From assembly GCA_964590575.1 (NCBI GenBank), contig CAZPWM010000004.1, positions 275 through 64,274 of the forward strand: DNA of 64,000 nt, in the 5' to 3' direction. Positions 24,567-64,000 of this stretch are shown piece after piece. Each line of letters begins with the position of its first letter. Position 1 is the stretch's first letter. The notes below the pieces were generated by a model. It did no database searches, was not told the DNA's origin, and saw nothing but the letters and a program-made list of their open reading frames with translations. The stretch is from an uncultured archaeon. Its GTDB lineage: Archaea; Asgardarchaeota; Thorarchaeia; Thorarchaeales; Thorarchaeaceae. A program made the translations under genes and the position numbers.

Positions 24567-25016
24567 ATGAGCTTTGATATTATTGCTGAGCCAAGAGTAA
24601 AATCGCCACGAGATGGTCGCCCAAAGAGGGGCCGTGGTTTTAGTAGTGAAGAGACTACTCAAGCAGGTCTCACCATAGATGAAGCTCGACGAATGGGGCT
24701 CATCGTGGATATTCGAAGAACGACTATCCATCCTGAAAATGTTGCAGCTTTGAAGCAGTACATGAAGGATCTCGAGGAGTTGGTTTCCGCTCTAACTGAA
24801 GAAGAGCAACCTATGAAAACACAGGTTGATGTTGCAGCTGATGACTTAGCATCCCTTCGGGCGGTCAAGGCGTCTGAGGTTCCCCTGCTTGTAAAAGCTG
24901 GCATTAAATCATTCGAAGACTTGGCCTACTGTGATATTTCTAAGGTCGCGAAGAAGACCGGAATTGATGAAGACCGGATTACAGCCATGGTCAAAGCTGC
25001 TCTTAGAAAGGTCTAG
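24567..25016 (+). CDS. rpl13e: Ribosomal protein L13e-like with a C-terminal HhH-like extension
   Basis: RVKSPRDGRPKRGRGFS...AGL...ARRMGL pattern of L13e. Confidence 0.55.
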   Translation: MSFDIIAEPRVKSPRDGRPKRGRGFSSEETTQAGLTIDEARRMGLIVDIRRTTIHPENVAALKQYMKDLEELVSALTEEEQPMKTQVDVAADDLASLRAVKASEVPLLVKAGIKSFEDLAYCDISKVAKKTGIDEDRITAMVKAALRKV

Positions 25017-26198: not shown

Positions 26199-27194
26199 TT
26201 GGAACTGGAACGTGTTCTTACTAAACTGAAGTTTGATGAATCAGTTAGTGGGTATGCTCTTATCACCAGTGATGGTCAACCCTTCTTGTCGTTTTCATTG
26301 CCAGATGAGGTACTACCTCAAATCAGAGGGACCCTACGAATCCATGGAAAGGATATGAAACTCGTTAACACCATGACCAGTAAAGGAACTGTTATCCTGG
26401 CAAGAGTTGACCCACGATGGGTACTCGCTGTTCTATTCGAGCCTGAGTTCCAGCTTGGTGGTGCTCTCTCAAGGACTAAGGCTGTTGTTGATCTTCTTGT
26501 GCAGGTCGACCTACCTCCTCCCCCAGCTACCATAGCATTGGAAGATGAGGTGACTTCTTTGGTTGAGGATGAACCGATATCTGAACTAGAGTCCAGTATT
26601 CCTGATGAGTCTGAAGATGTCATCGTGGAAGAAACTGCATCTTCTCAACCAACAGAACCATTGTCAATGGAGATAATGTCCACCGACTCTATTGATGAAT
26701 CTCTTAAAGAACAAGTCCAAGTAAGACATGGTTGTGTAGTGCATCGAGGCGAGAACTACAATGACTCCATGACCTTGGACTCGAAGCTCAATGTTACGCT
26801 AAAGAGGGAGTTTGCCAATATTGGCATTGATATCCTTCTAGTTGTCGACGAGAAGATGACCGTCTACAAACTTGCTGAACACTTAGCTAGACCTGTAGAG
26901 AAAGTCATTATGATTGTGGCTTGGTGTGTTTCGCATGATATTCTTTGGATTGAATGTCCTGAGGAACAAGAACCTAGCCAAAAGGCGATTATAGAGCTGC
27001 CTTTGTTTGAGGGGGACCTCAACAAGGCTAAGAAACAACATCGGGCTATACTCGAGTTGTGCAACGGAAAGAGGACATTGCAGGAAATTGCTACTGAACT
27101 TGGAATACTCTATTTCGATGCGTTGCAATGCATAATTCCATACCGCGGAAAAACGGTTAAGTTCATACGCACAGATAAATTGTCAAGATATTGA
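26199..27194 (+). CDS. Roadblock/LC7-domain fusion protein, paralog A: N-terminal Roadblock, PPPP plus acidic linker, C-terminal domain with a CPxFEGD / GxRTxxEIA motif
   Basis: N-terminus LERVLTKLKFDESVSGYALITSDGQPFLSF is a Roadblock/MglB-like start; same architecture as 29058-30065; TTG start. Confidence 0.6.
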   Translation: MELERVLTKLKFDESVSGYALITSDGQPFLSFSLPDEVLPQIRGTLRIHGKDMKLVNTMTSKGTVILARVDPRWVLAVLFEPEFQLGGALSRTKAVVDLLVQVDLPPPPATIALEDEVTSLVEDEPISELESSIPDESEDVIVEETASSQPTEPLSMEIMSTDSIDESLKEQVQVRHGCVVHRGENYNDSMTLDSKLNVTLKREFANIGIDILLVVDEKMTVYKLAEHLARPVEKVIMIVAWCVSHDILWIECPEEQEPSQKAIIELPLFEGDLNKAKKQHRAILELCNGKRTLQEIATELGILYFDALQCIIPYRGKTVKFIRTDKLSRY

Positions 27195-27213: not shown

Positions 27214-27717
27214 ATGGGTGTAAAGGGAAAAATAGCTTGGAATTTTATGACACCGAAAGTTTCCAAAGTCTTGTTTCAAGCAAGCTACAGAGAACTGATG
27301 AATCTTCTAATGAGCACCAGCATGAGTGTTGATGAAATAAATAGGAAGATGAAAGACATAGGCTTCAGGGTCGGAGAAACCCTGCTTATGGACTATGCTG
27401 ATAGGATCAGAGAACATGCTGGACAATTCCATGAGTTCGCGAATACTTTACAACTTGCATACAAGGTGAATTCAGGACAAACATTCACTAACATCTCGAT
27501 AAGTGAAGATAAGAGAACAATCAAGTTCACAGATGCAGACTGTCCTATATGTGCTGGTGTTCACATCACAGATATGCCTGGTTTGCAGTACTGTGTTATT
27601 GTGAGTGGTGTATTTGATGCAGTCATGAAACTGCGCGGATTCCATGCTGAAAGTTTCCAAGAGTCCTGCAGAGCGTTAGGTGAAGAAGTCTGTACTTGGA
27701 CCCTCTCACTTCGATAA
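27214..27717 (+). CDS. V4R-domain (Bet3/TRAPP-like) protein, paralog A
   Basis: C-terminal DCPICAGV...GLQYCVIVSGVFDAVM...C..LGEEVCTW matches the V4R Cys pattern; paralogous to 30089-30562. Confidence 0.6.
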   Translation: MGVKGKIAWNFMTPKVSKVLFQASYRELMNLLMSTSMSVDEINRKMKDIGFRVGETLLMDYADRIREHAGQFHEFANTLQLAYKVNSGQTFTNISISEDKRTIKFTDADCPICAGVHITDMPGLQYCVIVSGVFDAVMKLRGFHAESFQESCRALGEEVCTWTLSLR

Positions 27718-29057: not shown

Positions 29058-30065
29058 ATGTCCAAAGATTTAGAAAGAGCTCTATCTAAATTGAGATTCG
29101 ATGATCAAGTATTGGGTTATTCACTGATGACAAAGGTTGGAAGACCCTTTGTTAGTTTTGCATTTCCAGATGAACTATTTCCACGCGTTAAGGATAGCAT
29201 TAACCTATACAAATCTGAACTGCGTCTCATGACAATCGACACTGAACGAGGACTAGTTGTCCTATCACCTGTAGATAATAACTGGATTTTGACAGTTCTA
29301 TACGTCCCAGAGCTGCAGCTTGGATTGGCCATTGCTAAAACTAAGAATGTTTTGCGATTACTAGAAGGAATTGAACTTCCTCCTCCACCTGATGAATTCG
29401 AGGAATCCTCTGAATCAAATATTCAAGTATTGGAGAGCATTGCTATCAAAGCCGCCTCTGTTGAATCTGCAACCCCCGATGTAGGTTCGCTGACTCCAGA
29501 AGTCGATATTGCTACTTCGACTCCTGCTGTGGTAATACCAACACCCCCCGTTGAGGAGTTGCCACCCCCAGATGCTTTCAATGTTCAACCAATTACCGTG
29601 CCTGAAAGAGGACCTCGGTACTCGAACGCGCTAACCTTGGACTCTGCGCTTTATTTTGAGATGAAGAACTTATACCGCAACTTTGGGTTTGATGTTCTAA
29701 TGCTTGTCAACGGAACCATAAGTGTAGAGAAGATTGCGGACTCCATGTTTCAACCAAATGAAAGAGTAATTGACCTCCTAAAGTGGGGCGCCTCAAAGGG
29801 TATCATTAATGTTCCACAGCTTGCTGCAGGCGAAGAAGTTCCTTCTAAAACAAAAGGCACAATGGGTCGCTACGTAAAATGTCCTCGATTTGAGGGTGAT
29901 TTTGGCAAAGTTGAAAGCGGCGATCAAAGTATCATCAAAATGTGCGATGGAAATCGGACAACTGAACAGATTGCTGAGTCACTGAACCTTCCTTTGCCAA
30001 AGATTGTACAGACAGTCGCGAAATATAGAAAACATGGTCTAAAGCTAATTGGAAAGACCCTCTAA
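29058..30065 (+). CDS. Roadblock/LC7-domain fusion protein, paralog B
   Basis: LERALSKLRFDDQVLGYSLMTKVGRPFVSF N-terminus; LPPPP linker; C-terminal CPRFEGDFG...CDGNRTTEQIAESL aligned to paralog A. Confidence 0.6.
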   Translation: MSKDLERALSKLRFDDQVLGYSLMTKVGRPFVSFAFPDELFPRVKDSINLYKSELRLMTIDTERGLVVLSPVDNNWILTVLYVPELQLGLAIAKTKNVLRLLEGIELPPPPDEFEESSESNIQVLESIAIKAASVESATPDVGSLTPEVDIATSTPAVVIPTPPVEELPPPDAFNVQPITVPERGPRYSNALTLDSALYFEMKNLYRNFGFDVLMLVNGTISVEKIADSMFQPNERVIDLLKWGASKGIINVPQLAAGEEVPSKTKGTMGRYVKCPRFEGDFGKVESGDQSIIKMCDGNRTTEQIAESLNLPLPKIVQTVAKYRKHGLKLIGKTL

Positions 30066-30088
30066 ATTGCCACGTAGGTGTGACAAAA

Positions 30089-30562
30089 ATGCCTAAGATA
30101 GAAAATCCACTACTTGTTAGTCTCTATTCCTATTATGTCGAGAAGGTTCTTGAGGAAACTAGCAATATCGATGAAGCAAATCAAAGATTACGAACCCTTG
30201 GAAATGAAATTGGTCAGCAGGTTTACCTCAATACAGAGATTATAGAAAAGACAAAGGATAATGTTACGACGCGTGAGGATGTAGCAAAACTAATCGAGAT
30301 TGTCTACAGAGTTCTTTTTGATAAAAAACCAAAAGATATAGACATGAAAACAGCTCGTGGCTCTGTACGAATTACCGATGACCAATGTGTCTGGTGCCAA
30401 GAAGTCAATCTTGAAGGTATGCGTGGATTCGGATACTGCGAAGTCTTCAGTGGAATTCTTGAATCTGTACTCGAGTTCAAAGGTGTCGATGCAAAAGTCT
30501 TCCAAGAATTAAGTAAAGCTACAGGCGCTGATGCATGTGTCTGGAATGTCCGTTTAGTGTAA
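30089..30562 (+). CDS. V4R-domain (Bet3/TRAPP-like) protein, paralog B
   Basis: DDQCVWCQEV...GFGYCEVFSGILESV...ACVW parallels 27214-27717. Confidence 0.6.
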   Translation: MPKIENPLLVSLYSYYVEKVLEETSNIDEANQRLRTLGNEIGQQVYLNTEIIEKTKDNVTTREDVAKLIEIVYRVLFDKKPKDIDMKTARGSVRITDDQCVWCQEVNLEGMRGFGYCEVFSGILESVLEFKGVDAKVFQELSKATGADACVWNVRLV

Positions 30563-30631: not shown

Positions 30632-31186
30632 ATGTCCAAGCAAGATGATATCATTCCATGGTGGCAAGGACGACTGAAAGAACGTGATCTTATGGTTGCA
30701 TTCTTTGCCAAGACCTGGAACAAGATTGGGAATCGGATAGCTGTAATGTTCCCCGATCGAGTAAAAGACCTATACTACTCAGCTGGGCGTCTTGCAGGAC
30801 TTGAAGCACAAAGAGAATACTTCAAAATTGGAAAGCAAAAGCCTCCCGGAGACTTCAAGGGTATCATAGAGTTCATCAAGATGGCTCTTGAAACTCTGAT
30901 TGTACCTTTTGGCGACATCAGGATAGCAAAACTCTACAAGCTTTGGCTGGATGAAGAAGCGATAATCGAGATTATTGATAATCCATACGCTTCAGGCTAT
31001 GACGCTGAAGAACCTTCGTGCTTCTTCTTGAAGGGATTCATTGAGGCTGTTCTCGAGTATCTAACCGACTTCAACCGAATTGAGTATGAGAAATTGATTG
31101 TAACTGAGGATACGTGCATATCGATTGGTGCCGAAACATGCACATTTAAGATTACAATGACTTATCCTGCACGTGGCACCCCCTAA
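30632..31186 (+). CDS. Third V4R-like protein
   Basis: C-terminal SCFFLKGFIEAVLEY...TCISIGAETCTF resembles the V4R core. Confidence 0.45.
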   Translation: MSKQDDIIPWWQGRLKERDLMVAFFAKTWNKIGNRIAVMFPDRVKDLYYSAGRLAGLEAQREYFKIGKQKPPGDFKGIIEFIKMALETLIVPFGDIRIAKLYKLWLDEEAIIEIIDNPYASGYDAEEPSCFFLKGFIEAVLEYLTDFNRIEYEKLIVTEDTCISIGAETCTFKITMTYPARGTP

Positions 31187-55904: not shown

Positions 55905-56200
55905 GTCGCATGGTTTCCCCCGTCAAGGAACTCGCGTGTTAACACGGTCCCAAAGTGAGTTCTGGTCCCTATTGCCTGTTACTAGGCAAATCTTGCGCAT
56001 GTAATTTTTAACCATGCATCCTGTTAGGAAGAGCTCCACGGATGCGGAAGGTTCGCCTTGGCGGACCAGCCGCTCCAACCTTATTCACGCTGAGGGCATT
56101 AATAGACACACGGAATATCAAAATATACACACAGAACATCTTAATCTACAACCAAAAAATAACTTGCAGACTAAGAGGCTTCAAAAAACCAGGCCTCTCG
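55905..56200 (+). ncRNA. Candidate structured RNA (unassigned) in a GC-rich segment upstream of, or overlapping, the annotated GTPase 5' end
   Basis: Long-range pairing GCATGGTT (55908-15) with AACCATGC (56010-17); local hairpins CGTGTTAACACG (55935-46), GCCTGTTACTAGGC, CGCCTTGGCG (56055-64), AGAGGC-(13)-GCCTCT (56174-98); the region is GC-rich against AT-rich flanks and its translation is Arg/Ser/Pro-rich. Confidence 0.25.
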
Positions 56201-56202
56201 GT

Positions 56203-58014
56203 TTGATTGAACCTGGTGATATCGAAGTGATTCACAACACCTTCCTTGTTCGCATATCCAACCGGCAAATAATTGCATCTACCCAGTATTGGCCAGTTGA
56301 GGTGAGAAACGAAGCACTGAATGAATTCATCTCCACAAGAGAGGATCTCAGAACAGAACATGGCCAGGTGTCAGAACTACCTCTGATTATTGGGGATCAC
56401 AAATTCCTAGGAAAAGACTGGATTGAGGATTCAGTTCTTGTTTTCGTTACCGACAAGGGTGAGGATGAAAGCAATACCTATGAAAAGATAGACTTGGCTT
56501 TGAAAGCTCTTAGAACGACTTTCAAAAAGAAAGGGATTGAAGGAGCAATCAAGAATTATAGCAATCTTATCGAACCTTCTATTACAACTAGACTCAAGAT
56601 TGCTCTGGTCGGAGAAGGTGGTGTTGGGAAAACAACTACCTTGCATCTCCTCTTAGGTGATACGCCACCTCTACAGTATGTTCCAACAATAGCGTTGAAT
56701 TTAGAAACAGTTGAGAACATTCGCTTTGGCAACTACTCTCTGGTTCTATGGGACTTTGCTGGACAGGAACGGTTTCGAACTTTGTGGCGGTTCTACTTCC
56801 ATGGTGCAGATGTTATTTTCCTCGTGTGTGACTCCACTTTAAGGAACGTCATCATAAGCAAAGATATTCTCAAACTAATCAAACGAGATGCACCAAAGGT
56901 GCCTATATTTGCATTAGCAAATAAGCAGGATAAACCAAATGCTATGAAACCTGAAGTTGTTCAGAAGATTCTAGGGATTCCTACATATTCTATGGTGGCT
57001 ATCGACAAAGACCGTCGCGACGAAATGTTACGTATTCTTATGACTGCAGCTGCGCAGTACGTTGGCGTGGCTCTCCCAGACCTTCCTGCCGCAGAGCTAC
57101 TGAAATTCACAGACGCAGCCACTAAAGAAGCAATTGCAGAAGCAGATGCCATAGAGGTTAAGGCAATCGAAGAGGAAGAGATCGAGGAAGAAGAAGAGAT
57201 TGAAGAAGAACTTGAGGATGAAGAGTACGAAGAAGTAATTGAAGAAATCTTTGTTGATGAAGAAGGTCACGTGATTGAAAATCTCGATGAGTATGAGATT
57301 GTTGAAGAAGATGCAGATGAATCCATAGCGGTACCTACTGCAGCGGATGAAGTTGAGATAGAGGTTGAATCTCCGGAAGCGTTTGATATCCCTACAGTGG
57401 ATGATGCAGAGATTATAGAAGAGGTAGAAATTGAAATAGAGTCAGAACCTGAGCCAATTGAAGAATTCATTGAAGATGTTGTAAAGGAACCTATTGAGGC
57501 TTTTGAGGCGATTGCAGAAGAAGGTCCTGTGATCGAAGTGGTTACTAAAGATGAGCCAGAATCTGAACCTGTTGGAGCAGAGACTGAGACAGCTGAAGCG
57601 ACATATTTCGATTCTGGACCTGTATTAATAATAGAAGAGAATACTGACGCAATGAAGATGGCTAAGGATATCATCTTTGAGGCTCTTGAAACAGATGATA
57701 TTGATGATATTATTGCAACTGAGATTGAACAAGCCTCTGACGAAGAGATAGATACTGCTCTTCAGGCGATTGGGAGCGACGAAACAATCCCACTTGAAAA
57801 TGAACTTGTAGAGACTGAAGAGATTGATGCTGAATCGCTAATCGAACTTGAAAAATTTCTAGGTCCCTTGGATCGGCCCATTGGTGGTACTGGAATTGTA
57901 AAAACAGATGAAGATGATGAAGAAAACGACTCTTATCTCCCACTCAACGGTGAAACCCTTGCTGAGCTTGACCGTCTGTTCGATGCAAGTCAGGAAGACG
58001 GCGATTCAGACTGA
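56203..58014 (+). CDS. Arf/Arl-like small GTPase with an N-terminal Roadblock-like domain and a roughly 330-aa acidic low-complexity tail
   Basis: G1 GEGGVGKTT, Arf-type WDFAGQERFRTLWRFYF, NKQD; the C-terminus is made of E/D/I-rich repeats; start uncertain (the TTG at 56203 is chosen, the track ATG at 56014 is probably non-coding). Confidence 0.6.
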   Translation: MIEPGDIEVIHNTFLVRISNRQIIASTQYWPVEVRNEALNEFISTREDLRTEHGQVSELPLIIGDHKFLGKDWIEDSVLVFVTDKGEDESNTYEKIDLALKALRTTFKKKGIEGAIKNYSNLIEPSITTRLKIALVGEGGVGKTTTLHLLLGDTPPLQYVPTIALNLETVENIRFGNYSLVLWDFAGQERFRTLWRFYFHGADVIFLVCDSTLRNVIISKDILKLIKRDAPKVPIFALANKQDKPNAMKPEVVQKILGIPTYSMVAIDKDRRDEMLRILMTAAAQYVGVALPDLPAAELLKFTDAATKEAIAEADAIEVKAIEEEEIEEEEEIEEELEDEEYEEVIEEIFVDEEGHVIENLDEYEIVEEDADESIAVPTAADEVEIEVESPEAFDIPTVDDAEIIEEVEIEIESEPEPIEEFIEDVVKEPIEAFEAIAEEGPVIEVVTKDEPESEPVGAETETAEATYFDSGPVLIIEENTDAMKMAKDIIFEALETDDIDDIIATEIEQASDEEIDTALQAIGSDETIPLENELVETEEIDAESLIELEKFLGPLDRPIGGTGIVKTDEDDEENDSYLPLNGETLAELDRLFDASQEDGDSD

Positions 58015-58967: not shown

Positions 58968-59915
58968 GTGGCTGTTTCGCTCATCGATGAATCGACAAGT
59001 AAGAAACAGATTATTCCCCTCTTGCTTCTTTCCGTTTCAATGGTTTCAAGTGCCAGTATTTTGATTCTCTTCAGTTCTTCCCATCCTTTTGTAATCGTTT
59101 TTTGGAGGACCCTTTACGGAGCAATTTTCATGGCTTCGATTGGTGCAGTTAGAGGTGACCTTTCATCTCTGAAAAAACCAGTTGTACGTAATAATTTGCA
59201 TTGGCTTCTTGCCATAGGAGTAACATTGTCTCTTCACTTTTGCACATGGTTTCAATCTCTGTTTATGACAACCGTTGCTGCTAGTGTGGTTCTTGTTGAT
59301 TCATCTCCTATTTTCACTGCAATTCTTTCAACTCTGTTTCTTGGCGAAGCCTTACGAAGAAGATCTTGGTTTGGAATCCTGATAGCTTTGATTGGCGCTG
59401 TTTTCTTAGCCTGGGGTGATTTTGGAGGAAGTGGTATCATAGCTCTGGGAGGGGATCTCCTTGCACTTGCAGGAGCTGTCTTTCTCGCACTCTATTTCAT
59501 AGGTGGCCGGCGAATTGCTAAGGAGATGCCAATTACGGTTTACACTACAGTGATTTACCTGTTCGCAGCGATTAGTACCTTAGTAATCTGTATCGTTTTC
59601 AACCTGAATGTTCTTGTTTTCGAACCAACCGAGGTTGCAATTTTCATTGCTCTAGCAATATTTCCAACTGTACTTGGTCATTCTGTTAATAATTACTTAC
59701 TTACAAAGGTGCCAGCCTATGTTGTTTCTTCAGCTGTTCTGGGAGAACCAATAGGTGCAGCCCTCTTAGCTGCTTTCATTTTCGCACAGATTCCAGGACC
59801 AACAGCTATTATCGGATTCTTTGTGATTCTGGCTGGCATAGCAGTAGTGTTGGTGGATATTGCTGCACGTGAAAGAGATAGAATCTCAACCCTTGATAAC
59901 ACCGATAGGTCGTAA
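58968..59915 (+). CDS. DMT-superfamily (EamA-like) transporter
   Basis: Ten TM segments arranged as two EamA halves. Confidence 0.7.
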   Translation: MAVSLIDESTSKKQIIPLLLLSVSMVSSASILILFSSSHPFVIVFWRTLYGAIFMASIGAVRGDLSSLKKPVVRNNLHWLLAIGVTLSLHFCTWFQSLFMTTVAASVVLVDSSPIFTAILSTLFLGEALRRRSWFGILIALIGAVFLAWGDFGGSGIIALGGDLLALAGAVFLALYFIGGRRIAKEMPITVYTTVIYLFAAISTLVICIVFNLNVLVFEPTEVAIFIALAIFPTVLGHSVNNYLLTKVPAYVVSSAVLGEPIGAALLAAFIFAQIPGPTAIIGFFVILAGIAVVLVDIAARERDRISTLDNTDRS

Positions 59916-61331
59916 CCGTACCGCCTTTGTGGCGATACCCACTGCATCAGAAACTTTCACAACTTCATCAACATCTTTGTACGCTCCAGGTGCTTCCTCT
60001 GCAATCACAATACCCTTGGTTGCTCTTACGAGGATTCCTTCTGAAGCGAGTTTCTGTTGTACTTCTTTCCCGAAGAACTGTTTCTTTGCTTTCGACCGAC
60101 TCATGAACCGCCCTGCTCCATGAGCTGTTGAACCCCATGTCAATTCCATTCCTTTCTGGTTACCAATCAGAATGTATGATGCAGTACCCATTGTCCCTGG
60201 AATAATCACTGGCTGTCCCACCTCTCGATATTTTACTGGCACTTCAGGATGACCTGGCGGAAATGCACGAGTCGCACCCTTTCTATGAACGACGACTTTA
60301 GTCTTCTTTCCATCTATATTATGTTCTTCAACCTTGCCCATATTATGAGCGACATCGTAGATGAGACCCATGTCTAAATCCTCCGCTGAGCTCCGCATCA
60401 CCTTTGCAAATGCTTCTCTTGTCCAGTGCATCATCACTTGTCTATTTGCGAAGGCATAATTCGCTGCTGCACTCATTGCTCCCAGATATGCTTGTCCTTC
60501 AGGTGAGGTTGTAGGTGCACAACAAAGTTCTCGATCTGGAACTTCAATGTTGTATTTTCTCATTGCATGTGTCATTATCTTAATGTATTCAGAGCACACT
60601 TGATGTCCGAGACCACGAGAACCACTATGTATCATCACCATGACCTGTTTCTTTCTGGTGATGCCCATTATCTTAGCTGCTTCTTCGTCATAGATATCAT
60701 CGACCACTTGAATCTCTAGAAAGTGATTCCCTGATCCAAGTGTACCACTCTGTTTGAGACCTCGACTCTTAGCAGTGTCCTGAACATCAGAAGGATTCGC
60801 AATATCGAGTTTTCCATTGGCTTCTTGATGATTTAGATCCTCTTCCCAACCATATCCTTGTTCTATAGCCCACTCTGAACCATTTGCAAGGACCTCATCT
60901 ACTCCTCTATAGTTTCGCAAATCGATTTTGCCTTGCTTTCCTACACCAGTAGGCACATCATCAAATAACTGATCGATTAAGTCTCTAATCTTTGGCTGAA
61001 CGTCACTCTCATCAAGATTTGTTCTTAGAATCCGAACCCCACAATTGATATCATAGCCGACCCCACCTGGAGAAATCACGCCCGATTCATAATCCGTTGC
61101 AGCAACTCCACCTATTGGAAATCCATACCCTTGATGACCATCTGGTAGTACTATGCTGTGTTTGTATATCCCTGGCAGACATGCTGCATTCGTTGCTTGT
61201 GTGAAGGTTGCATCTTGCCTCATCTTCTTTACAAGACTATCAGAGGCAAATATTGTGACCGGAACCTTCATGCATGATTGGGTGCCCTTGGGGATTTCAT
61301 GGATGTATTCAGAGACCTTCTTGATATCCAC
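59886..61331 (-). CDS. rtcB: RNA-splicing ligase RtcB
   Basis: LPGIYKHSIVLPDGHQGYGFPIGGVAA, GYDINCGVR, GSGNHF, HGAGR motifs; 481 aa, no intein. Confidence 0.85.
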   Translation of the reverse strand: MDIKKVSEYIHEIPKGTQSCMKVPVTIFASDSLVKKMRQDATFTQATNAACLPGIYKHSIVLPDGHQGYGFPIGGVAATDYESGVISPGGVGYDINCGVRILRTNLDESDVQPKIRDLIDQLFDDVPTGVGKQGKIDLRNYRGVDEVLANGSEWAIEQGYGWEEDLNHQEANGKLDIANPSDVQDTAKSRGLKQSGTLGSGNHFLEIQVVDDIYDEEAAKIMGITRKKQVMVMIHSGSRGLGHQVCSEYIKIMTHAMRKYNIEVPDRELCCAPTTSPEGQAYLGAMSAAANYAFANRQVMMHWTREAFAKVMRSSAEDLDMGLIYDVAHNMGKVEEHNIDGKKTKVVVHRKGATRAFPPGHPEVPVKYREVGQPVIIPGTMGTASYILIGNQKGMELTWGSTAHGAGRFMSRSKAKKQFFGKEVQQKLASEGILVRATKGIVIAEEAPGAYKDVDEVVKVSDAVGIATKAVRLRPIGVIKG

Positions 61332-61505: not shown

Positions 61506-62516
61506 ATGGTAACTTCTCACGGCTGAAGCTGCAAGGTCCAACAGAATGATCTTACTCGCCTTTTACAAACTGCAAACTTGCTTCCTTCTGGGTCTAGTAC
61601 CGCAGAGGAAATCGGTGATGACGCAGTGGTCCGTGTCATCAGTGACGACATAGCAGTTGTAGAAAACGTGGATATCTTCACACCCATCCATGATGACCCT
61701 AACCTACAGGGCGAGATTGTCGCATGCAATGCTACTAACGATATCTTTGCTATGGGTGTCACTGACATTCTCTCATTTCAAGCATTCCTTGCTTATCCCA
61801 AGGATTTGCCAGAAGAGATTGTTGTGGGAGTTCTCAAAGGAATGAAGAGTTTCATGGAACGCCATAGGGCAAAGATTTCTGGTGGCCAGACAATCACGAA
61901 TCCTGTTCCGGTCTTCGGGGGGATTGCACTTGGCACTGCGCACCCGCGTGATATTGTATATTCACGTGGTGCTAAGGCTGGCGATGTAGTCCTTCTGACA
62001 AAGCCACTGGGTATACAACCAGCGATGAGATCATACAGAGACCTTAGAGATGAGAAACGCGATGCGCTTTTGTCTGAATTCAAGGAGTCTGACCTCAAAC
62101 GAATGCAGGATGTTGCTGTTCGGCTGATGACCTTCAGCAATCTTGAGGTTGCTCAAGCAATGCGAAGTGTTGGAGTGCATGCTGCAACAGATATCACAGG
62201 ATTCGGTCTACTCGGTCATGCTGGAAACGTCAGTTCTCTAAGTGGAGTTGATGTGGTTATCGATCAAGTCCCTGTGATTCGTGGGACTCTTCAACTGGCT
62301 GAGTTCTTTGGTCATAAACTCTCAACTGGATTCGGTGCCGAGACCGCAGGTGGAATGCTTGTGTTCTTGGAACCAAGTAAGGAAGAAGAGTTTCGAAGAT
62401 TCCTCAAAGAAAAGAAGCTGCCCTGTTGGCCTGTTGGCAAAGCTGTGAAACCTATAGGATCACCTTGTGCATGTCTTGCACAGGATGCACAGTTTATCGA
62501 GACCGAATTCCCATGA
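61506..62516 (+). CDS. selD: Selenophosphate synthetase SelD with an in-frame UGA (selenocysteine) at 61524-61526
   Basis: Reading from the ATG at 61506 gives MVTSHG-U-SCKVQQNDLTRLL...GDDAVV, which aligns with the SHGAGCGCK...GDDAAV region of SelD/SPS2 and puts U where the catalytic Cys/Sec sits; downstream AIR-synthase-like fold (NDIFAMG, GGQT). Confidence 0.75.
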
Positions 62517-62739: not shown

Positions 62740-63573
62740 ATGAAGATTGTCGTTACTGGTCCCTATGAATCTGGTAAGAGCCTGATGATTCATCATATCA
62801 CAAACGGTGCATGCATCAATGTTGAACGTAGGGGAACTACAATTGCGATGGACCATGGCTTAGCTAATGTAGATGGAATGAGCGTCTTCATGTTCGGAAC
62901 TCCTGGACTCCTTCGCTTTCGTACGATGCGGAAGATTCTCAGTGAAGGCGCAGATGGAATCGTCTTTGTCGTTGATTCAGTTGATCCAGAATCTGACGCT
63001 CGTGCAAAGTTGTTTTTCAGAGAGATTGCATTCTTCTTACCTGGAGTGCCCTGTGTAGTTGCAGCGAATAAACAGGACCTTCCGGAAGCCCGACCCATCG
63101 ATCATCTTCGGAAGAATCTTAGATTTCTAGCTGGTCTCCCAGTGTTTCCTGTTTCAGCCAAAACTGGAGAAAATGTTGACAGTATGCTCCGGACACTTCT
63201 GTATCTTGTTATGATGCAATGGAGTTCTGTCTTTAGAAAATTTGCTGAGCATAGTGGAGATAAGAAAGGGCTTAGTAAAATGATGAAAGACCTGAATATT
63301 GAACGCGAACAAGCAGTAGGTTATCTGCGCCGGTTTGAGCTGAGGAAGCTACTAGAAGTCCAAGTGGGCGACGAGCAGTTCGTCGTCAAAGACTCTGTGC
63401 AACCGCTTCTCGAGAATCCCGTCTTACTTATGCGTCGGTTGTTTGAATTTCATCTTTATTTCATCAACGCGCTCTTTCTAGATGTTTTAATATCGCATCC
63501 AATGTCGTTCAGAAAGAATCAAAAGCGATATAGCCCGCCAACGTTGATGTTTTCAGGTGAGTCAAATGAGTGA
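62740..63573 (+). CDS. MglA-like small GTPase with a roughly 110-aa C-terminal extension
   Basis: GPYESGKS (compare MglA GPGLCGKT), FGTPG (compare TVPGQ), GADGIVFVVDS, NKQDLP. Confidence 0.65.
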   Translation: MKIVVTGPYESGKSLMIHHITNGACINVERRGTTIAMDHGLANVDGMSVFMFGTPGLLRFRTMRKILSEGADGIVFVVDSVDPESDARAKLFFREIAFFLPGVPCVVAANKQDLPEARPIDHLRKNLRFLAGLPVFPVSAKTGENVDSMLRTLLYLVMMQWSSVFRKFAEHSGDKKGLSKMMKDLNIEREQAVGYLRRFELRKLLEVQVGDEQFVVKDSVQPLLENPVLLMRRLFEFHLYFINALFLDVLISHPMSFRKNQKRYSPPTLMFSGESNE

Positions 63574-64000
63574 TGAAATAGAAGACATGGACCCTGCAGA
63601 AATCTTGGAACAGGCTGCTGAAGCTTTGGAAGCTGGAGAGAAGGATACAGCCGCAAAGATGTTCAATGCAGTTGGTAATTTCTATATGTCTCTTGCAGAA
63701 TTTGAAGAGGCTCACAAATGCTTCGAAGACTCTCTGAAAATCTATCAAGATATGAAAGATGAAACCGGTATTTGCGATACAATGTACAATCTTGGAGTGG
63801 CACAAATCAACCTTGAGCATTGGGATGAAGCAATTGCGACACTTGAATCTTCAAGAAAAATGTTTGAGAAGTCTTCTAACACTAGCGGTGCTGCTGATGC
63901 CACCTATGGTCTTGCTTTGGCAACCTTAGGTCAAGGGAACTTTGATACTGCCATGGCTCACTTCAAGAAAGCTCAACGTGCGTACACTACACTTGAGAAC
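63566..64000 (+). CDS. TPR-repeat protein (5' part; runs off the window end), translationally coupled to the MglA-like GTPase
   Basis: Repeated A..Y/F..LG..A TPR helices; 8-nt overlap with the upstream gene. Confidence 0.55.
   Translation, partial: MSDEIEDMDPAEILEQAAEALEAGEKDTAAKMFNAVGNFYMSLAEFEEAHKCFEDSLKIYQDMKDETGICDTMYNLGVAQINLEHWDEAIATLESSRKMFEKSSNTSGAADATYGLALATLGQGNFDTAMAHFKKAQRAYTTLEN

Follow-up and report, generated by a model that had tools for sequence, protein, structure and literature searches.

The GTPase gene and its conserved cassette

A small GTPase gene and the genes accompanying it were analysed in a window of 64,000 nt from a Thorarchaeaceae archaeon (contig CAZPWM010000004.1 of assembly GCA_964590575.1, positions 275-64,274), the term window referring here to this whole stretch of DNA. 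The open reading frame (ORF) of the GTPase occupies positions 62740-63573 (+ strand) and encodes 277 amino acids (aa) as read, of which the conserved coding sequence (62740-63438, + strand) accounts for 233 aa, comprising a G domain (aa 1-160) and a winged helix (aa 161-233). Next to it lies the 5′ part of a gene encoding a tetratricopeptide repeat (TPR) protein (63566-64000, + strand), with its start codon ATG at 63566 and its first 145 codons present before the gene is truncated by the window end. A protein search covering 5.8 billion proteins returned 610 homologues of the GTPase at E<=1e-3, which indicates that the gene is real. Furthermore, 80 further loci were fetched, one per species genome, and a total of 82 orthologous loci were tabulated, including that of the window. 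The two genes probably correspond to gene 1 and the start of gene 2 of a four-gene cassette conserved in Thorarchaeota.

The adjacency of the TPR gene and the GTPase gene, which the earlier note on this DNA had pointed out, is conserved in the Thorarchaeota loci. In every locus that was long enough (about 50 complete ones), the order was GTPase, TPR protein, a protein of ~1250 aa and a Roadblock protein, all encoded on the same strand. This gene order was conserved over about 75 Thorarchaeota species, and the same cassette order was found for a GTPase orthologue with 56% identity. The TPR protein is cytosolic and ends in an acidic tail. Its called orthologues are 202-332 aa long (287 aa for loci L004-L006), and Pfam TPR_12 was matched by both the window fragment (E=3e-18, 66.1 bits vs. 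a cut-off of 30.1) and a full orthologue (L004:8824-9687; E=3e-27, 94.9 bits).

The third gene lies beyond the window end, and its orthologue (L004:9839-13585) encodes a type-I single-pass surface protein of ~1250 aa. Its signal peptide appears once the start is extended, as the start chosen by the gene caller misses it. The ectodomain showed a weak PPC match, a weak Peptidase_C25-like region (at the Pfam gathering threshold) and sub-threshold Ig-like matches, with N-glycosylation sequons occurring about once per 100 residues, and no match was found for the surface protein in PDB and NCBIfam. At the C-terminus, one transmembrane helix is followed by a Lys/Arg-rich cytoplasmic tail of 40-60 aa, which in about 48 of the 51 distinct orthologues carries the motif D-x-(K/R)-E-(F/Y)-F-G-V at the C-terminus or within two residues of it. 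The ending KE(F/Y)FGV was unique to the surface-protein gene among the 3845 ORFs of the fetched loci (1.37 Mb, not genome-wide).

The Roadblock gene, third downstream of the GTPase, encodes 120 aa with a Robl_LC7 domain (Pfam E=1.5e-20) and matches Streptomyces CvnB5 (3LEQ, E=7e-12). The cassette Roadblock of SMTZ1-45 (L016:14496-14855) is identical at 119 of 120 positions to PDB 7F8M ('Thor-RB'), a crystallised homodimer whose cassette neighbourhood goes unmentioned in the publication (Tran et al., PMC10933270). In MK-D1, genome layout was reported to be of help only rarely (Tran et al., 2024). GTPase genes generally lie outside Roadblock operons there, which makes it hard to predict partners. 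The cassette supplies one predicted GTPase/Roadblock pair.

Loss of the GTPase stop codon in the window

The earlier note had described the GTPase as carrying a 110-aa C-terminal extension and as translationally coupled to the TPR gene, with its stop overlapping the TPR start by 8 nt. The overlap is literally present in the window (+ strand; TGA at 63571-63573, ATG at 63566), but it was absent from all 81 orthologues, and the coupling falls with it, as the overlapping stop and start were found in the window and in none of the 81 other loci. When five orthologous contigs were aligned, TAG or TAA was found exactly at the position of the window's TTG (63439-63441, + strand), a position that is occupied by TAG, TAA or TGA in the orthologues; moreover, the window had one extra base near 63498 compared with these five contigs. 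The GTPase was 233 aa long in 76 of the 82 loci and 234 aa in five, with 277 aa found only in the window, and the stop codons (counting the window's downstream TGA) were TAG in 37 loci, TGA in 25 and TAA in 20. Likewise, more than 90 close GTPase homologues (from Thorarchaeota or related Asgard archaea where named) were essentially all 233 aa long and ended in NPVLLMRR. The 277-aa form was a single occurrence in its 90%-identity cluster, on one NCBI contig of 66,053 nt, and the other members of that cluster had 233 aa, except for one fragment of 85 aa.

The spacer between the GTPase stop and the TPR start measured 65-128 nt in close relatives, with AGGTGAG before the TPR start. In the window, this Shine-Dalgarno-like sequence is located at 63555-63561 (+ strand), 4 nt before the TPR start, and it is kept in close orthologues; furthermore, an in-frame stop sits just upstream of the TPR ATG at 63566. 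Over 68 loci, the median spacer was 96 nt according to a simple first-ATG rule, with zero overlaps. A few more distant loci had an in-frame ATG 2-5 nt past the stop and TPR homology ~85 nt further on, their true starts being uncertain.

Since the orthologues stop at the position of the window's TTG, the last 44 codons of the window ORF are translated spacer. The read-through tail (63439-63573, + strand; 44 codons and the TGA) is spacer DNA and not conserved coding sequence, so that the C-terminal extension proved genuine for aa 161-233 and spurious for 44 of its ~110 residues. The 8-nt overlap, and with it the appearance of coupling, arises from one A-to-T change (TAG to TTG), either a strain variant or an assembly error. 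The loss of the stop codon is private to this contig, and the overlap and the last 44 residues are outside the family design. One altered base in one metagenome-assembled genome was enough to produce the overlap and much of the extension, which calls for caution.

G domain motifs and family assignment

The motifs quoted in the earlier note were all located in the ORF: GPYESGKS at aa 7-14, FGTPGL at aa 52-57, GADGIVFVVDS at aa 70-80 and NKQDLP at aa 110-115. On the + strand, the G1 motif or P-loop (62758-62781) fits GxxxxGK[ST] and is followed by G2 or switch I (GTTIAMDHG, aa 32-40, 62833-62859), where a TT pair replaces the Arg finger of MglA group 1, by G3 or switch II (FGTPGL, 62893-62910), by G4 (NKQD, aa 110-113, 63067-63078), as read from the family alignment and motif table, and by G5 (SAK, aa 139-141, 63154-63162). 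In a 26-member family alignment, the invariant residues were G7, G12 and K13 in G1, T34 and D38 in G2, F52, G53, P55 and G56 in G3, D79, K111 and D113, and S139 in G5. The diagnostic motifs of the family were GTT[IV]A[ML]DHG for switch I and FGTPG for switch II. The G4 and G5 motifs of Ras-superfamily small GTPases are present (NKQD and SAK), and the DxxGQ form of G3 is absent: the sequence reads G53-T-P-G56-L57, with Gly for the Walker-B Asp and Leu for the catalytic Gln. Of the 15 winged-helix-fused Asgard members tabulated, every one had Leu, or in a few cases Met or Lys, at this last position. Gln was kept in the seven relatives fused to KaiC and, among 26 small stand-alone relatives, in 17.

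Domain databases recognized the GTPase in generic terms only. Pfam and NCBIfam returned Ras (E=5e-10), Arf, MMR_HSR1, a weak ATP_bind_1 and TIGR00231, of which Pfam Ras and Arf were above threshold and TIGR00231 scored 53.6 bits vs. a cut-off of 42.5. A classification by solved structures was tried and rejected, as both the profile search and Foldseek returned generic small GTPases without distinguishing MglA from Rab or Arf. In particular, the best matches of the PDB profile search were the Asgard Arf-like protein 8OUK (E=9e-22) and Rab1, with Thermus MglA scoring similarly, and the Foldseek probability was 1.0 against Rab, Arf and MglA (small-GTPase fold), the top matches of the GTPase model being Rab1. 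Because solved structures do not discriminate, the assignment is based on the tree, the linkage to Roadblock and the signatures seen in G2 and G3.

In a neighbour-joining (NJ) tree of 60 sequences and 164 columns, a crude method applied to a set without Rup sequences, the GTPG-type proteins and MglA were separated from Arf, Sar, Rab, Ras, Rho, Ran, Rag and the Asgard Arf-like proteins in 412 of 500 bootstraps, so that the phylogeny against MglA, Arf, Sar and Rag proposed in the earlier note favoured MglA. All reference GTPase sequences except HRas were verified end-to-end against PDB chains. The G domain of the window shared 39-41% identity with the KaiC fusions and 38% with the bacterial group; for MglA the value was 29-30%, and for all others it was 16-28%. 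According to the motif table of the 60 sequences, its signature is common to methanogen-type KaiC-ATPase-GTPase fusions and to small bacterial 'ATP/GTP-binding proteins', while MglA proper (from Myxococcus xanthus and Thermus thermophilus) shows YTVPGQ and (D/E)RT, and the eukaryote-type proteins, including the Arf-like protein encoded at 56014 in the window, show DxxGQ. Neither the hallmarks of Arf and Sar, which include an N-terminal amphipathic helix, nor the Rag/Gtr layout, in which a C-terminal Roadblock domain is fused to the G domain, were found: the protein opens with MKIVVTGP straight at strand 1 and its G3 is GTPGL instead of DxGGQ/H, and the C-terminal domain is a winged helix of three helices and a hairpin, with 19% identity between the G domain and that of RagA.

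In the published definition of MglA groups 2-5 (Wuichet & Sogaard-Andersen 2014, PMC4316618), G3 reads GTPGQ, a Thr stands where group 1 has its Arg finger, and MglB/Roadblock is encoded no more than four genes away. In the GTPase, GTPG is found with Leu instead of Gln as its final residue, and the TT pair is found in G32-T33-T34. Every complete orthologous locus has Robl_LC7 as the third gene downstream, a place that is past the end of the window. Taken together, these sequence features support the assignment of the GTPase to the MglA family of the GTPGQ type ('MglA2-5') and not to MglA proper. The label 'MglA-like' of the earlier note holds, therefore, for the family in its broad sense (by the TT pair of G2, the GTPG of G3 and the tree) and not for MglA proper, since TVPGQ, the intrinsic Arg finger and the catalytic Gln are lacking. 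'MglA2-5', a term of Klinger 2016 and Vargova 2024/25, has already been listed among Asgard GTPases (bioRxiv 10.1101/2024.02.28.582541), and MglA-like GTPases predicted by AlphaFold 2 (AF2) were noted in MK-D1 (PMC10933270).

Winged helix and conserved spacer element

The AF2 model of the GTPase showed two domains, with a predicted local distance difference test (pLDDT) of 91 and a predicted template modelling score (pTM) of 0.89. In the C-terminal winged helix (aa 161-233, 63220-63438, + strand), helices were assigned by DSSP to residues 162-171, 177-185 and 189-201 and a beta hairpin to residues 205-216, and L196 and E200 were invariant in the family alignment. When 14 members were scanned with Pfam (E<=10), weak matches to TrmB, TFIIE_alpha, HTH_45 and HVO_A0114 recurred; DUF742 was not matched in any of them at this threshold, and an identity of the C-terminal domain with DUF742/CvnC was discarded. 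A PDB profile search with this domain returned nothing significant. The architecture of G domain and winged helix appeared in about 18 clusters at 50% identity, and the named members belonged to Thor-, Odin-, Hel-, Hod- and 'Prometh'-archaeota. Judging from the sequences, this Asgard subfamily is set apart by two features, the replacement of Gln by Leu and the fused winged helix.

The spacer between the GTPase and TPR genes contains a conserved non-coding element, AGAAAGAATCAAAAGCGATATAG (63511-63533, + strand), with a 16-nt core, AGAAAGAATCAAAAGC (63511-63526). The 23-mer appeared with zero mismatches in about 26 loci, and its 18-nt 3′ part was exact in 23 loci. The 16-nt core was kept down to 74% protein identity in nearly all Thorarchaeota loci, with the flanking spacer being unalignable. 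The element was located 33-60 nt upstream of the TPR start and appeared once per locus, with one copy in the window vs. none expected. No match was found in an Rfam scan of the spacer element, and a general promoter or regulon motif was rejected because of the single copy per locus, the only other near-match in the window being inside a coding region. The element could be an operator, part of a promoter or an RNA site.

Other lineages and Roadblock-fold proteins

A distinct TPR protein of 376 aa is encoded directly upstream of the orthologous GTPase in Odinarchaeum (L008:7807-8937) and in the H2M lineage (L088:798-1928). These two proteins share 41% identity and show no detectable orthology to the Thorarchaeota TPR protein, and no Roadblock or surface-protein gene was found near either GTPase locus. 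A TPR partner is a recurring theme, since the GTPases of Odinarchaeum and H2M adjoin an unrelated TPR gene, but none was found at the Helarchaeota locus, in the distant lineage L089 or beside the second Thorarchaeota paralogue. Outside the Asgard archaea, the fusions of a KaiC/RecA-like ATPase to a GTPGQ GTPase (~370-410 aa; L091:5001-6167, P0114; from Methanocellales where named) adjoin a second KaiC-like gene, and the nearest bacterial relative (P0116, from Chloroflexi) has genes for a PATAN-domain protein and for a histidine kinase beside it and lacks a Roadblock gene within 5 kb.

Roadblock fusions had been proposed in the earlier note at two other places in the window. They are two paralogous ORFs of ~333 aa (26199-27194 and 29058-30065, + strand), each followed by TRAPP/V4R genes (27214-27717 for the first, and 30080-30562 and 30632-31186 for the second). 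In the AF2 model of the ORF at 29058, a Roadblock fold (aa 1-103) is followed by a disordered linker (aa 113-166) and two winged-helix-like modules. By Foldseek, the first domain matched Thor-RB, the MK-D1 roadblocks, LAMTOR/MP1-p14 and MglB (template modelling (TM) score 0.6-0.7), and the full length gave low-TM matches to GATOR1/SEA chains of ~370 aa; the modelled layout suggests an NPRL2/3-like protein, as a lead only. A hidden Markov model (HMM) of the cassette Roadblocks matched the ORF at 29058 with E=2.6e-4 and that at 26199, a paralogue with 33% identity, with E=0.09. Of the two proposed fusions, it is the modelled one at 29058 for which an N-terminal Roadblock fold is supported. Pfam detected no Roadblock domain in either ORF, and their homologues were annotated at most as winged-helix proteins. 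Kinship of the GTPase's winged helix with its counterpart in the 29058 family was rejected, as hhalign gave a non-significant probability of 2%. In the 56%-identical lineage (L007/L082), the triad of Roadblock-fold and TRAPP genes lies directly upstream of the GTPase cassette, in divergent orientation, which lends some support to the distributed GTPase network suggested in the earlier note.

With regard to the neighbouring genes, an AIR-synthase-related gene (61578-62516, + strand; AIRS and AIRS_C, SelD/HypE/ThiL-like) was found directly 5′ of the GTPase in most Thorarchaeota loci, and it is preceded in the window by RtcB (59886-61331, minus strand). Further upstream, a protein of 666 aa (56014-58014, + strand) carries DFAGQ in a central Arf/Roc-like G domain (aa 192-330) and has a C-terminal region that is very long and acidic; its counterpart (584-587 aa) holds the same upstream position in orthologous loci. 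Finally, a small protein with a match to ribosomal protein L13e and a helix-hairpin-helix tail is encoded at 24567-25016 (+ strand), in keeping with the Asgard origin to which the named GTPase homologues point.

Discussion

The reading considered likely is that the window holds the beginning of a conserved Thorarchaeota cassette encoding an MglA/MglB-like switch, which is linked via the TPR protein to the tail of a surface protein. According to this proposal, the Roadblock dimer would act on the GTPase as MglB does on MglA, providing a platform similar to a GTPase-activating protein or guanine nucleotide exchange factor that would lie across the switch face as in 3T1Q and 6IZW. The nucleotide state of the GTPase would govern its binding to the TPR protein, as in the case of MglA-GTP and SgmX, and the TPR protein would in turn clamp the conserved C-terminal peptide of the surface protein, whose position, activity or engagement would thereby be controlled, or from which an outside-in signal would be relayed. 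As the GTPase has no catalytic Gln, it may hydrolyse GTP at a very low rate or have the reaction completed in trans. The peptide KE(F/Y)FGV-COOH is a candidate TPR ligand, since TPR domains often clamp extreme C-terminal peptides, as in the EEVD co-chaperones of Hsp70/Hsp90 and in PEX5-PTS1. Moreover, the two tails are complementary in charge, acidic in the TPR protein and basic in the surface protein. With regard to the bacterial precedents, MglA is regulated by MglB (PMC3199381), and SgmX, a TPR protein of Myxococcus, binds MglA-GTP and not MglA-GDP (PMC7668184).

Several observations weigh against this proposal. The absence of the catalytic Gln makes a normal GTPase cycle uncertain on sequence grounds, and the proposed mechanism leaves the winged helix without an assigned role. 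The conserved spacer element hints at a separate regulation of genes 2-4. Furthermore, the cassette was not found at the Helarchaeota locus, in the distant lineage L089 or at the second Thorarchaeota paralogue. As for the family assignment, the clade of GTPG-type proteins alone received only 225 of 500 bootstraps in the simple NJ tree, and the comparisons with solved structures fail to single out MglA, with the Asgard Arf-like protein and Rab1 scoring equally or better.

Among the other explanations, the absence of the catalytic Gln could mean that the protein is a nucleotide-locked pseudo-GTPase scaffold, which would bind GTP without cycling and serve as a static adaptor for the Roadblock, TPR and surface proteins. 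In Ras, Arf and Rab, GTP is no longer hydrolysed once this Gln is changed to Leu, and the pattern of substitution is consistent with such a role, as Leu, Met or Lys replaces Gln in 15 of the 15 winged-helix-fused Asgard members, while the KaiC fusions and 17 of the 26 stand-alone relatives keep it. However, G1, G2, G4 and G5 are strictly conserved, which argues for nucleotide binding and probably for gamma-phosphate sensing; the Roadblock regulator is kept in the cassette; and GTPases that lack this Gln, such as Rap and Sar1, hydrolyse GTP with help in trans, so that a static scaffold is considered unlikely. The winged helix and the spacer element would both be accounted for if the protein were a nucleotide-gated transcription factor, whose winged helix would bind DNA (for instance, the 16-23-nt element) and switch the TPR, surface-protein and Roadblock genes according to the GTP or GDP state. 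The winged helix has an LxxLExxGLI-like pattern of the archaeal TrmB/MarR class, along with its weak Pfam matches to TrmB, TFIIE_alpha and HTH_45; the element upstream of the TPR start is locus-specific and deeply conserved; and there is a partial precedent in the published MglA group 3 genes, which adjoin a receiver and winged-helix regulator. Nevertheless, this domain is just mildly basic (about +3, read from sequence), winged helices often make protein contacts, the element lacks an obvious repeat symmetry, and the winged helix is kept in the Odin- and Helarchaeota members and in the second Thorarchaeota paralogue without the cassette or the element, all of which makes a transcription factor of this kind quite improbable.

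Two further explanations concern what the GTPase is and how its gene is read. It would belong to the eukaryote-like Asgard set as a trafficking GTPase of the Arf/Rab kind, and would not be a relative of MglA, if the profile matches to 8OUK (E=9e-22) and Rab1, the Foldseek top match (Rab1) and the Pfam Ras and Arf matches above threshold were taken at face value. However, the first position of G3 is Gly and not Asp, as in all GTPGQ-type proteins, and neither the N-terminal helix of Arf nor the C-terminal Cys of Rab is present. The identity to MglA (29-30%) compares with 16-28% for the eukaryote-type set, the tree split was recovered in 412 of 500 bootstraps, and the linkage to Roadblock suits the definition of the MglA family, which leaves the Arf/Rab-like alternative very improbable. 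A designed translational coupling through the overlapping stop and start, by a GTPase with a functional 110-aa extension, is extremely improbable. Although the 277-aa ORF and the overlap do exist in the window and the gene call on the source contig likewise gives 277 aa, the overlap is missing from each of the 81 orthologues, all of which end at codon 234 or 235; close relatives have a spacer of 65-128 nt with a Shine-Dalgarno-like site of its own; and the supposed extension crosses the conserved non-coding element, which varies without three-periodicity.

The cassette can be compared with several known systems. MglA groups 2-5, including the archaeal group 4, share with it GxxxxGK[ST], TT[VI]A[ML]D[HF]G, a GTPG whose Gly takes the place of the Walker-B Asp, NKQD and the presence of Roadblock no more than four genes away; moreover, like the archaeal MglA members, the GTPase of the window lacks the bacterial insertion between G1 and G2. 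It differs from these groups in the Leu that replaces Gln, in the fused winged helix and in the cassette, where a TPR gene and the gene of a giant surface protein are conserved beside it, and for archaeal group 4 no conserved neighbours were reported in the published survey. The MglA-MglB system of Myxococcus xanthus and Thermus thermophilus (group 1, with SgmX as effector) likewise combines a small GTPase and a Roadblock dimer, with a TPR protein as a plausible GTP-state-specific partner. In contrast to that system, the cassette GTPase has neither TVPGQ nor the intrinsic Arg finger, RomR/RomX are absent, the identity is 29-30%, and the proposed output is a single-pass surface protein, whereas the known output is the pili or the gliding machinery. 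In the actinobacterial conservon CvnA-D, a GTPGQ-type GTPase (CvnD-like) is also found beside a Roadblock protein, and the cassette Roadblock resembles CvnB5; however, the cassette has no gene for a histidine kinase (CvnA) or DUF742 protein (CvnC), and its GTPase has a canonical NKQD, unlike MglA group 2. The methanogen-type fusions of KaiC-like ATPase and GTPase (Methanocellales, P0114) contain the closest non-Asgard G domains (39-41%) and share G1, G2 and G4, but they keep Gln, carry an N-terminal KaiC/RecA-like ATPase in place of a winged helix and adjoin another KaiC-like gene. Finally, as with the TPR clamps of the EEVD co-chaperones and of PEX5-PTS1, a soluble TPR protein is encoded in the cassette beside a protein with a strictly conserved C-terminal motif, although KE(F/Y)FGV is unrelated to EEVD or SKL and its role as a ligand is that of a candidate. 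The GTPase family is known, while the form lacking Gln and fused to a winged helix and the four-gene cassette appear to be undescribed in the literature searched.

Asgard archaea encode dozens of small GTPases together with Roadblock and longin proteins, and few of these regulators have been assigned to particular GTPases. The cassette offers one concrete conserved set, in which an MglA-type GTPase is joined by Thor-RB, already crystallised, by a TPR adaptor and by a surface protein whose tail carries a candidate docking peptide. As a long shot, these parts might constitute a receptor-adaptor-GTPase pathway, running from the tail of the surface protein through the TPR protein to the GTPase without Gln, whose winged helix would bind the 16-nt element and set the expression of its own operon. 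If true, a Ras-superfamily switch would connect the cell surface directly with DNA in the prokaryotes most closely related to eukaryotes. Moreover, the loss of the catalytic Gln and the gain of a winged helix in an MglA-type GTPase bear on the diversification of such switches before eukaryotes.

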